From Candidatus Hydrothermarchaeum profundi (GTDB lineage: Archaea; Hydrothermarchaeota; Hydrothermarchaeia; Hydrothermarchaeales; Hydrothermarchaeaceae): 64,000 nucleotides of DNA. Shown here piece after piece: positions 47,652-49,760 of this stretch. The DNA lies in assembly GCA_002011125.2 (NCBI GenBank), contig MTMF02000009.1:396006-460005 (forward strand), given 5' to 3'. How positions within the stretch are numbered: the stretch's first letter is position 1; each line of letters begins with the position of its first letter. The position numbers were made by a program, and so were the translations under genes. The notes below the pieces were generated by a model that had not been told where the DNA came from, searched no databases, and saw only the letters and a list, made by a program, of their open reading frames with translations.

Positions 47652-48528
47652 AACAGGCACTGAAAAAGTGAAGAGAGGCTTGGCTCAAATGCTTAAGGGA
47701 GGAGTAATAATGGATGTTACAAACGCAGAGCAGGCGGTAATCGCGGAAGAAGCTGGAGCAGTAGCAGTAATGGCTTTGGAAAGAGTGCCCGCGGATATAA
47801 GAGCTGCTGGCGGAGTAGCTAGGATGGCAGATCCAAAAAAAATCGAGGAAATAATGGACGCTGTCACCATACCTGTGATGGCTAAAGTTAGAATTGGACA
47901 TTTCGCTGAAGCCCAGATACTTGAAGCTATGGGAGTTGACTTTATAGATGAAAGTGAAGTTCTCACTCCAGCTGATGAAAGGAATCATATTGACAAAACT
48001 AAATTTAAAGTGCCTTTTGTATGCGGCGCAAGAAGTCTTGGAGAGGCTTTACGTAGGATTGGAGAGGGTGCTGCGATGATAAGGACTAAAGGAGAAGCAG
48101 GTAGCGGTAATGTAGTAGAAGCTGTAAGGCATATGCGAGAGGTGATGGGGCATATTAGAAAACTTCAAAACATGTCAGAAGACGAACTTATGACTGAAGC
48201 TAAAGAGATGGGTGCACCATATGACCTAGTAAAAGAAACCGCTAAGCTTGGAAGACTACCTGTAGTTAATTTCGCTGCTGGCGGAATTGCTACTCCTGCT
48301 GATGCTTCATTAATGATGCAGTTAGGCGCTGATGGTATTTTTGTAGGCTCTGGTATTTTCAAGTCTGAAAATCCTGCTGCAAGAGCTAAAGCAATAGTGA
48401 TGGCTACTACTCACTATGATGATCCAAAGGTATTAATTGAAGCTTCAAAAGGAATCGGAGAGGCTATGAAAGGATTGGATATTAGAAGCCTTAAGCCTGA
48501 AGAACTCCTTCAAACTAGGGGGGTTTGA
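47644..48528 (+). CDS. pdxS: PLP synthase lyase subunit
   Basis: [39 protein letters not shown] after GGAGGTG. Confidence 0.97.
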
Positions 48529-49760
48529 TGCTAAAGTTTTTTAATACCCTCTCCAGAAAGAAGGAGCTTTTTTTTCCTTTGGAGGAGGGAAGAGTAAAAC
48601 TTTACACATGTGGTCCTTCTGTTTATGACACTCCTCACCTTGGTAATTATCGAACTTATGCTTTTGAAGATACATTAAAAAGATACTTAGAATTCAAAGG
48701 TTTTGAAGTATTCCATGTAATGAATGTTACCGATGTTGAAGATAAAGCTATAAGAGCTGCGAAAAAAGATAAAATATCTCTTAAAGAACTTACCAATAGG
48801 TATTTAGATATTTTTTTAAAAGATATGGATTTACTGAAGATAAAGCTTCCTAATATCTGTGCTATAGCTTCTGAACATATAAAAGATGCCGAAAAACTTG
48901 TTAAAATCTTATTAAACAAAGGTTTAGCTTATAAGGATGAAAAAGGCAATGTTTTCTACGATATATCAAAATTTAAGGGATATGGAATGCTTTCAAAAAT
49001 TAAACTCACCGATAAAATGTTAAACCGCAGAGTTACAAAAGATGATTACCAGAATTGGGAGGCAGGAGACTATGTTCTTTGGAAAGCATGGAAGAAGAGT
49101 GATGGAGAAGTATATTGGGAGAGTTATTTAGGGAAAGGACGTCCAGGATGGCATCTAGAGGATACTGCTATCGCCCTTCGATATTTAGGTGATAGATATG
49201 ATATCCACTGCGGTGGTGCGGATAATGTTTTCCCACACCATGAAAATCTAATCGCGCAAAATGATGGAGTAACCGGCCATAAAACTGTTAATTACTGGCT
49301 CCATTGCCGACATTTAATAATAGAAGGAAGAAAGATGTCAAAACGTACCGGAAATGTAGTGTATCCCCAAGACCTTATCTCTAAAGGTTTTACTCCAGAA
49401 GGCATAAGGTATCTATTCTACTCTACCCACTATCGTAGAAGATTGAACTTCACTATGGATGAAATGCGGAAGGCGGAAGAAGAAGTCAAACGCCTAAATG
49501 GATTTATAAAATCCCTAAAAATAGGAGGAAATGAATATATCCCTGAGATAAAGGAGGAAGTTGATAAATTAATTAAAGATTTTGAGAAATCGATGGATGA
49601 CGATCTTAATACTGTGTTAGCTCTCAAGGCAATTTCAAATATGATTGAAAATCTGGGGAAATATAGGAATGTTAAGCTGTCAAAAGATAATTACACGGAG
49701 ATTATGGAAACTATCAAAAGAGTTAATAGCGTGCTCCCTATCTTTCAATATTATCTGTAA
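48528..49760 (+). CDS. Cysteinyl-tRNA synthetase-like class I ligase (atypical, truncated paralog)
   Basis: YTCGPSVY, HLGN, GRPGWH, FPHHEN, KMSK, MDDDLNT; ends after the DALR domain. Confidence 0.85.
   Translation: MLKFFNTLSRKKELFFPLEEGRVKLYTCGPSVYDTPHLGNYRTYAFEDTLKRYLEFKGFEVFHVMNVTDVEDKAIRAAKKDKISLKELTNRYLDIFLKDMDLLKIKLPNICAIASEHIKDAEKLVKILLNKGLAYKDEKGNVFYDISKFKGYGMLSKIKLTDKMLNRRVTKDDYQNWEAGDYVLWKAWKKSDGEVYWESYLGKGRPGWHLEDTAIALRYLGDRYDIHCGGADNVFPHHENLIAQNDGVTGHKTVNYWLHCRHLIIEGRKMSKRTGNVVYPQDLISKGFTPEGIRYLFYSTHYRRRLNFTMDEMRKAEEEVKRLNGFIKSLKIGGNEYIPEIKEEVDKLIKDFEKSMDDDLNTVLALKAISNMIENLGKYRNVKLSKDNYTEIMETIKRVNSVLPIFQYYL

Follow-up and report, generated by a model that had tools for sequence, protein, structure and literature searches.

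A short CysRS-like gene with two changed zinc-ligand positions between pdxS and pdxT of Candidatus Hydrothermarchaeum profundi

Introduction

Between pdxS and pdxT, the genes for the two subunits of pyridoxal 5'-phosphate (PLP) synthase, the archaeon Candidatus Hydrothermarchaeum profundi carries a gene for a short protein that resembles cysteinyl-tRNA synthetase (CysRS). The DNA analysed, called the window below, is a stretch of 64,000 nucleotides (nt) of GenBank assembly GCA_002011125.2 (contig MTMF02000009.1, positions 396,006 to 460,005 of the forward strand); positions are counted from its first letter. An earlier note, made from the letters of the window, had described the product as a CysRS paralog with a rewired zinc site, and had proposed that it is a non-translational ligase for a substrate other than cysteine. 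The best explanation of what was found is that the gene is real and intact, an extra copy that belongs to an archaeal clade of CysRS-like proteins that are short and basic.

The gene and its product

The gene is an uninterrupted open reading frame (ORF) for 410 residues; its ATG at 48528 opens the sequence MLKFFNTL, which aligns with the N-termini of homologues (Table 1). Pfam places the domain tRNA-synt_1e at residues 16-317 (E 7e-91), followed by the DALR_2 helical bundle, and its scan of the protein finds no CysS_C domain (PF23493). TIGR00435, the NCBI equivalog model for cysS, is matched with 377.7 bits, above its cut-off of 340, over model positions 1-400 of 466; TIGR03447, the model for MshC, gives 223 bits against a cut-off of 485.1. 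By these domain models, the C-terminal CysS_C domain of about 60 residues is missing and the helical-bundle part of the anticodon-binding region is retained. The earlier statement that the protein has no anticodon-binding domain is then right about CysS_C, which neither Pfam nor the coverage of TIGR00435 reveals, and wrong about the DALR_2 bundle. A split gene is rejected: no stand-alone CysS_C domain is encoded in the genome, and the single one present sits in a full-length CysRS.

The fold agrees with the family assignment. An AlphaFold2 model made with 38 aligned sequences has a predicted local distance difference test score (pLDDT) of 96.3 and a predicted template-modelling score (pTM) of 0.93. 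Its top matches in the PDB are CysRS structures (8qhp_A, template-modelling (TM) score 0.92; 1li5_A, TM 0.86), and MshC (3c8z_A, TM 0.83) ranks below them. The Class I catalytic core, with HLGN and KMSK, is complete, and the stem-contact region is retained. The tail beyond KMSK has 138 residues, within the 122-146 seen across 37 short forms. G+C content at third codon positions is 0.297, compared with 0.28-0.33 for the neighbouring genes; composition gives no support to a recent foreign origin.

Table 1. Features of the locus, with loci of other genomes used in comparison
Feature	Position	Strand	Basis or remark
CysRS-like gene, 410 aa (P0001)	48528..49760	+	Uninterrupted ORF; tRNA-synt_1e and DALR_2
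Cys28 codon, retained Zn ligand in YTCGPSVY	48609..48611	+	1li5_A alignment; invariant in 38/38 rows of model alignment
HLGN, HIGH-type ATP-binding motif, residues 37-40	48636..48647	+	Translation, 1li5_A alignment
PGWHLEDTA, residues 206-214; D212 replaces Cys209	49143..49169	+	Asp codon GAT, 49161-49163
PHHENLIAQ, residues 236-244; H237 kept, L241 replaces Glu238	49233..49259	+	Leu codon CTA, 49248-49250
KMSK loop, residues 269-272	49332..49343	+	1li5_A alignment
DALR_2 helical bundle, residues 352-407	49581..49748	+	Pfam; protein ends 3 residues after
pdxS, PLP synthase subunit	47629..48528	+	SOR_SNZ, E 4e-111 (Pfam)
pdxT, glutaminase subunit of PLP synthase	49794..50369	+	SNO, E 1.2e-53 (Pfam)
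Array, first part: Lrp/AsnC-like regulator, AIR-synthase-related, pdxS, CysRS-like, pdxT	45799-53339 (whole array)	+	Regulator read from sequence
Array, after pdxT: homocitrate-synthase-like, aconitase-like large then small subunit		+	HMGL-like and HCS_D2 (homocitrate-synthase-like)
DsbA-like gap gene, relative	L155:581-1483	-	
DsbA-like gap gene, relative	L159:2348-3289	+	
DsbA-like gap gene, relative	L164:611-1531	-	
DsbA-like gap gene, relative	L167:640-1641	+	
DsbA-like gap gene, relative	L169:577-1482	+	
Short-form loci next to an ABC-2 pair	L031-L035, L038, L041-L044, L049, L066, L068, L082, L089, L125, L132		

The zinc site

Equivalent residues were found by aligning the protein, residue by residue, with E. 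coli CysRS (1li5_A, in its native numbering). C28, T68, K73 and R76 of the short protein correspond to C28, T68, K73 and K76 of the E. coli enzyme; W208, D212, H237 and L241 correspond to W205, C209, H234 and E238; and KMSK at 269-272 corresponds to 266-269. Gly29 is kept alongside Cys28, Thr68, Trp208 and His237. The zinc ligands of CysRS are said, in work from 2002 attributed to Newberry et al., to be Cys28, Cys209, His234 and Glu238. Two of this canonical set are kept (the C28 and H234 equivalents), and two are changed, to Asp at 209 and Leu at 238. Aspartate is competent as a zinc ligand. Two cysteines of the CysRS zinc site are also mentioned in the available portion of PMC5660078.

All four motifs given in the earlier note (HLGN, KMSK, PGWHLEDTA and PHHENLIAQ) are exact in the translation and the alignment, and its assignment of Asp to the Cys209 position and of Leu to the Glu238 position is borne out. 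Neither codon looks like a misread base: GAT lies two bases from the nearest Cys codon, and CTA two bases from the nearest Glu codon. In addition, a sequencing run from another study (X2) yields contigs that are identical over 47855-48869 and 49110-50316, spans that take in both gene junctions and both codons. These two facts lead us to reject an assembly or base-calling artefact. A third study, of a hydrothermal-vent metagenome (run X3), provides a contig over 49144-49800 from a strain about 98% identical (14 differences in 657 nt). This strain has a 7-nt insertion at 49750, 10 nt before the stop of the CysRS-like gene, which would alter the last residues.

A supernumerary gene

The genome (2.19 Mb, 97.65% complete) has two full routes to Cys-tRNA besides the short gene. 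Its full-length CysRS has 466 residues, scores 547.7 bits, reads PGWHLECSA and PHHQNEIAQ at the zinc-site segments and carries the genome's sole CysS_C domain; it is 67% identical to proteins that carry the name Bathyarchaeia or Bathyarchaeales in their source databases. SepRS (749.6 bits) and SepCysS (365.5 bits) are present as well. The earlier note had suggested looking elsewhere in the genome for a canonical cysS or for SepRS and SepCysS; all three are there, and so the short gene is supernumerary, not the CysRS of the cell.

The same was seen in the other genomes checked. Five with a short form each have a full CysRS, SepRS or both, making six of six with this one: Fermentimicrarchaeum, whose genome is complete, has a full CysRS; the metagenome-assembled genomes of Hadarchaeum and ANME-1 have SepRS; and two Bathyarchaeia have both.

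There is no tRNA gene in the window, and no selB-like gene near the CysRS-like gene within it. ARAGORN reports for the genome one tRNACys(GCA) and no suppressor-type tRNA, in an incomplete census of only 23 tRNAs; no tRNA-Sec reaches the Rfam cut-off in the genome.

Relatives of the short protein

The closest protein other than itself, in a word-indexed search of 5.8 billion proteins, is 53% identical. When 40 related genomes were searched with the protein, 35 of the 41 genomes, counting this one, held a match. The short forms that emerged fall into several clades, which differ at the zinc site.

Many of the related genomes have a short CysRS-like gene as a second copy, and the 16 of these that were recovered make up clade A. 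Cys209 is kept in all 16, and the Glu238 position holds Ser in nine, Gly in three, Thr in two and Glu in two. Clade B, found among the best matches in the 5.8 billion proteins, comprises nine metagenomic proteins of 411-434 residues that end at the same point as ours; these keep all four ligand positions, in PGW[SN]IECSA and mostly SHHENEIAQ. A scan of contigs of GTDB genomes gave 80 loci, of which 18 are short forms, the best match being 48% identical (L089). Their hosts are Micrarchaeota, Hadarchaeota, ANME-1, ANME-2, Bathyarchaeia and unclassified archaea. Five of these 18, from one ANME-1, one ANME-2 and three Bathyarchaeia, define clade C. Here the motifs are PAWN[VI]QD[PA]A and RHHDY[TV]IA[VI], with Asp at 209 and no Glu at 238, while HIGN, KMSK, Cys28 and His234 are kept.

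A hidden Markov model (HMM) of our protein and clade C was then run against 1.84 billion representative proteins, and our protein and the best 150 matches were aligned, giving 151 rows. Position 209 is Cys in 131 rows, Asp in 19 and Ser in one; position 238 is Glu in 135, Asn in eight, Thr in five, and Val, Gly and Leu in one each, the Leu being that of the window. The 18 other Asp209 rows among these best matches divide into 13 that are like clade C (nine of 401-424 residues; four of 242-336 residues, probably partial) and five full-length proteins of 455-474 residues (P0153, P0229, P0232, P0262 and P0265). The full-length five read GWHIEDTAI and keep Glu238, in PHHE[CA]EIAQ or, in one, PHHDCEIAI; our protein is 34-39% identical to them, and one cluster among theirs bears the name of a Thermoplasmata cysteine--tRNA ligase. 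As an aside, three of the five have Cys at the Asn237 position (PHHECEIAQ or PHHDCEIAI). The same HMM search also returned three full-length CysRS (P0124, P0148 and P0183) with an N-terminal fusion to a PALP domain of the PLP-dependent kind, which we take to be of the cysteine-synthase-type fold.

The Asp/Leu pair itself was found in no close relative, whether among the 5.8 billion proteins, the best HMM matches from the 1.84 billion representatives or the GTDB contigs. The earlier note had held that substitutions unique to this sequence would point to decay or sequencing error. The exact pair is indeed unique to it. The combination of Asp209 with loss of Glu238, however, recurs in clade C, which is conserved, and on that ground neither simple decay nor error is the best reading. 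On the alignments, Asp at 209 is a recurrent, conserved solution.

Phylogeny

Three trees were made with rows picked from the search matches (65, 62 and 53 rows). Without clade C (65 rows), our protein groups with clade B (99*), on the longest terminal branch of the tree (0.86). With clade C and other short forms added (62 rows), a single superclade of 24 rows (99*) takes in every short form but those of clade A, and our protein is sister to clade C with support of 82. In a careful tree (53 rows), the two zinc-site segments were removed so that the trait could not drive the grouping; the 13 rows {our protein, 10 clade C rows, L106, P0137} then hold together at 97/97*. These trees place our protein deep within the short superclade, as a fast-evolving member, and its Asp212 may go back to a common ancestor with clade C. 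Orthology with the clade A gene of the related genomes was considered and rejected: clade A is a separate group (100*). No clade A copy is present in this genome.

Constraint, charge and neighbours of the short forms

Constraint was gauged against 110 canonical CysRS of at least 455 residues (P0007-P0120 of the 5.8-billion-protein search), in which 159 columns are at least 95% conserved. Our protein keeps 120 of these; clade A members keep 110-128, clade B 125-136, clade C 80-101 and other short forms 109-128. Most of its 39 changes are conservative; the few radical ones include C212D and E241L. The pattern has the look of a change specific to the metal site, in what would otherwise be a maintained enzyme.

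The short proteins are basic. The isoelectric point (pI) is 9.0 for ours and the medians of the short clades are 9.15-9.9, against 6.2 for the 110 canonical CysRS when these are cut to their first 410 residues, and 7.7 for the genome's own canonical enzyme. The connective-peptide (CP) loop is rich in Arg and Lys in the short groups (NRRV, KRRF or RAKT instead of the canonical KPGARV), and reads NRRV here. According to the available portion of PMC5389517, the CP1 region of CysRS reads the acceptor stem's first base pair, and it is altered also in the CysRS* enzymes discussed below.

The company kept by the short genes suggests a shared function for the family. An ATPase-permease pair of the ABC-2 kind, like DrrA/DrrB, lies within 1.5 kb at 17 of 37 short-form loci and at none of 91 full-length CysRS loci, counts in which kin are not independent and two of the 'short' rows are perhaps cut by contig ends. 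The association spans Bathyarchaeia, Micrarchaeota, ANME-2 and unclassified archaea. There is no such exporter pair beside the CysRS-like gene of the window. An orthologous pair, 72-77% identical to the neighbours of clade A, lies elsewhere in the genome (G000:C9:1177193-1178895, L139), without a CysRS-like neighbour; a divergent ORF of 360 residues takes that place.

The short archaeal CysRS-like superclade is widespread and apparently undescribed. No description of it was found in the full-text literature searched, a scope outside which subscription journals and supplements fall.

The pdxS-pdxT setting

The stop codon of pdxS (TGA, 48526-48528) shares its A with the ATG of the CysRS-like gene, a 1-nt overlap; a run of G lies a few bases upstream of that ATG, and pdxT starts 33 nt past the CysRS-like stop. 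The TGATG overlap and the position between pdxS and pdxT that the earlier note had reported were both confirmed from coordinates and Pfam matches. Throughout the co-directional array to which these genes belong, gaps or overlaps are shorter than 45 nt. Such an arrangement argues for probable co-expression; by itself it does not argue for a shared pathway.

In relatives, the AIR-synthase-like gene, pdxS and pdxT keep their order. pdxT follows pdxS directly at eight loci, and seven others, belonging to families f2 and f10, have a gap of about 0.9-1 kb between the two genes. In five of these seven spaced loci, the count not extending to L163, the gap holds an ORF of about 300 residues for a membrane-anchored DsbA-like thioredoxin; at L162, no such ORF was found under the ORF filter used. 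These gap genes of sister families (PF13462/PF01323, with a C-P-[FY]-C motif) occupy the same slot as the CysRS-like gene does here. Contigs of relatives in the same family end inside pdxS and are uninformative on the gap.

A conserved linkage of short CysRS-like genes to pdxS or pdxT was looked for in relatives, with the pdxS and pdxT of the window as probes, and none was seen: neither gene occurs at any of 34 short-form loci of other genomes (16 and 18 in the two sets above). A functional tie to pdxS-pdxT finds no support here, the position being lineage-specific. The likeliest origin is an insertion, in this lineage, among closely packed genes that all run the same way.

What the protein may do

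The reading that we prefer, tentatively and at a little less than an even chance, supposes that the metal site has been remodelled, that cysteine or a close thiol analogue is activated, and that the acceptor is not chosen by its anticodon; the role would be other than housekeeping. A metal would be bound through Cys28, Asp212 and His237, with Asp212 turned toward the metal as the alignment suggests, and Leu at the Glu238 position would leave one coordination site open. With ATP the protein would make an aminoacyl-adenylate, the amino acid being in all probability cysteine or a near analogue with a thiol. It would then hand the activated residue on to an acceptor whose recognition does not call for the C-terminal domain; hence the protein would not serve as the housekeeping Cys-tRNA ligase. 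As to that acceptor, the 3' end of an RNA is slightly favoured, because the short clades are all strongly basic and have the Arg/Lys-rich CP loop.

Several observations weigh against this account. High pI would equally fit binding to a membrane or to another polyanion. A score above the cysS cut-off (377.7 against 340 bits) is compatible with ordinary, redundant CysRS activity, and, to judge from the five full-length proteins that have the EDTA motif, Asp209 can go together with a tRNA-ligase architecture. A census of only 23 tRNAs says little about an unusual acceptor tRNA. In the 53-row tree, the grouping of our protein with clade C to the exclusion of others stands at only 74/26, and the approximately unbiased (AU) test retains the placement with the zinc-intact clade B (log-likelihood difference 15.7, p 0.099); so Asp212 may have arisen by convergence. 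Finally, the terminal branch is among the longest in that tree too (0.63, beside the 0.86 above), and the nearest relative is only 53% identical.

A second perspective, that of the earlier note, supposes a tRNA-independent amide ligase of the MshC type, with a substrate other than cysteine, acting in thiol or cofactor biosynthesis and tied to PLP synthase. Two of four zinc-ligand positions are altered, the length and the loss of CysS_C resemble those of MshC, the MshC fold matches at TM 0.83, and the gene is supernumerary and begins within the pdxS stop. We nevertheless consider this unlikely. Both score (377.7 bits for cysS against 223 for MshC, less than half of the latter's cut-off of 485.1) and fold (TM 0.92 against 0.83) are nearer to CysRS. 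A substrate other than cysteine is not supported: the rest of the cysteine pocket is kept (Gly29, Thr68, Trp208 and His237, besides Cys28), and Asp can ligate zinc. The link to PLP synthase is missing from all 34 short-form loci scanned in other genomes, and sister families have the unrelated DsbA-like gene in the same slot. A strongly basic protein would also be unexpected for a ligase of small molecules, though this is a weak argument.

Decay is equally improbable as an explanation. The gene would on this account be a redundant duplicate adrift after constraint was lost, or would encode a non-catalytic pseudo-enzyme that binds or regulates. The long terminal branch, an Asp/Leu combination found in no other protein and the altered C-terminal tail that the 7-nt insertion would give the X3 strain all fit; moreover, E. 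coli C209D is nearly inactive in translation, as far as the available portion of PMC10655014 goes. Against drift stand an intact frame with all adenylation motifs kept; the 120 of 159 conserved columns retained, a figure in the range of the short clades, with changes that are mostly conservative; a confidently predicted fold (pLDDT 96.3); a start that is translationally coupled to an essential-type gene; a composition like that of the neighbours; and an identical sequence from an independent study (X2).

Could the protein simply still work as a Cys-tRNA ligase, whether as an isozyme that is redundant or specific to certain conditions or, like CysRS*, by charging a special tRNA whose anticodon it does not read? 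The score above the equivalog cut-off and the existence of full-length CysRS of the EDTA type are in its favour. So is the precedent: in the available portion of PMC5389517, the CysRS* of Desulfobacterales is without the anticodon-binding domain, differs in its CP1 motif and acts on a selC* tRNACys, and the CP loop of our protein is likewise changed, and basic. Yet the window contains no tRNA gene, the ARAGORN and Rfam results offer a single tRNACys(GCA) with neither a suppressor-type tRNA nor a tRNA-Sec at cut-off, and two routes to Cys-tRNA already exist in the genome. Two ligand positions are changed, and the reports available in part on E. coli C209D, in which translation activity is greatly reduced (PMC10655014, PMC5660078), speak against efficient charging. 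We regard this role as doubtful, a shade more so than decay.

The last perspective draws on the persulfide chemistry reported for CysRS, and is the least probable of those set out here. On this view the protein, a natural separation-of-function CysRS that has given up tRNA charging and is co-expressed with PdxS and PdxT, would make cysteine persulfide (CysSSH) as its dedicated task, with PLP and independently of tRNA. According to the portions of PMC5660078 and PMC10655014 available, the latter citing Akaike et al. 2017, E. coli CysRS with C28D, C209D or C28/209D keeps persulfide production while translation is greatly reduced, CARS2 C78/257D behaves likewise, and the activity requires PLP at the lysines of KIIK and KMSK. 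The window's protein has the exact change of C209 to Asp, keeps K73, K269 and K272, and is encoded between pdxS and pdxT with a 1-nt overlap. Since C209D mutants keep persulfide synthesis, the PLP-synthase context is a testable lead. The low rank of this account follows from a gene position that is seen in this genome only. In addition, the K76 equivalent is Arg, and is Ala in many canonical relatives, so the lysine motif is not diagnostic; the array also holds unrelated AIR-synthase-like, homocitrate-synthase-like and aconitase-like genes; and the chemistry, in the sources as available, rests on the reports of one group.

Comparison with known systems

With canonical CysRS (E. coli 1LI5/1U0B) the protein shares the Class I Rossmann core, the HIGH and KMSKS elements, the CP insertion, the stem-contact fold and DALR_2, together with the C28, H234, W205 and T68 equivalents (TM 0.86-0.92). 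It differs in lacking CysS_C, in Cys209 to Asp and Glu238 to Leu, in a CP loop that reads NRRV and not GARV, in its pI of 9.0 and in being supernumerary.

Truncated paralogs of synthetases are already known; MshC, CysRS* and Glu-Q-RS are the examples in the available portion of PMC9437257. MshC, the Cys:GlcN-Ins ligase of mycothiol synthesis, is likewise derived from CysRS, about 410 residues long and without the C-terminal domain, and the same portion makes it a precedent for tRNA-independent use of Cys-AMP. Our protein belongs to a separate lineage, and no actinobacterial or mycothiol context turned up around it, although no search aimed at such a context was made. Glu-Q-RS (YadB), a truncated paralog of GluRS, is similar in being Class I without an anticodon-binding domain, and transfers an activated amino acid to a non-canonical site on RNA (PMC9437257, in part); it comes from another synthetase family, and no modified-nucleoside target is suggested for the short CysRS-like protein.

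The CysRS* of Desulfobacterales (Mukai et al. 2017) is proposed, in the available portion of PMC5389517, to charge its tRNA irrespective of the anticodon. Our protein lacks CysS_C and has a CP loop that departs from the canonical GARV, but the loop is NRRV here and a PTVS motif in CysRS*. CysRS* is bacterial and lies beside selC* and selB*, whereas the gene of the window is archaeal, has no tRNA or selB-like gene nearby, and has changed zinc ligands. The remaining comparison is with CARS as a persulfide synthase (Akaike et al. 2017; PMC5660078, in part): our protein carries naturally the C209D change that was engineered there, with K73 and KMSK kept. The published activity is a moonlighting function of full-length enzymes, and the portion available describes no dedicated paralog.

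Implications

MshC, CysRS* and Glu-Q-RS each uncovered new chemistry. The family around the CysRS-like gene is more interesting than the single gene: in archaea, short CysRS-like genes form a large set whose members carry the annotation of an ordinary cysteine--tRNA ligase, and some of its subclades show a systematic change of the zinc site that defines cysteine selection. If the persulfide account were true, the short superclade, including its subclades with Asp at 209 and those that lack Glu238, would be an undescribed archaeal family that uses the CysRS scaffold for non-translational sulfur or thiol chemistry. The natural C209D change inside a PLP-synthase gene pair would allow a direct test of whether CysRS-type persulfide synthesis has dedicated natural enzymes, and the answer would bear on the sulfur metabolism of uncultured subsurface and marine archaea.

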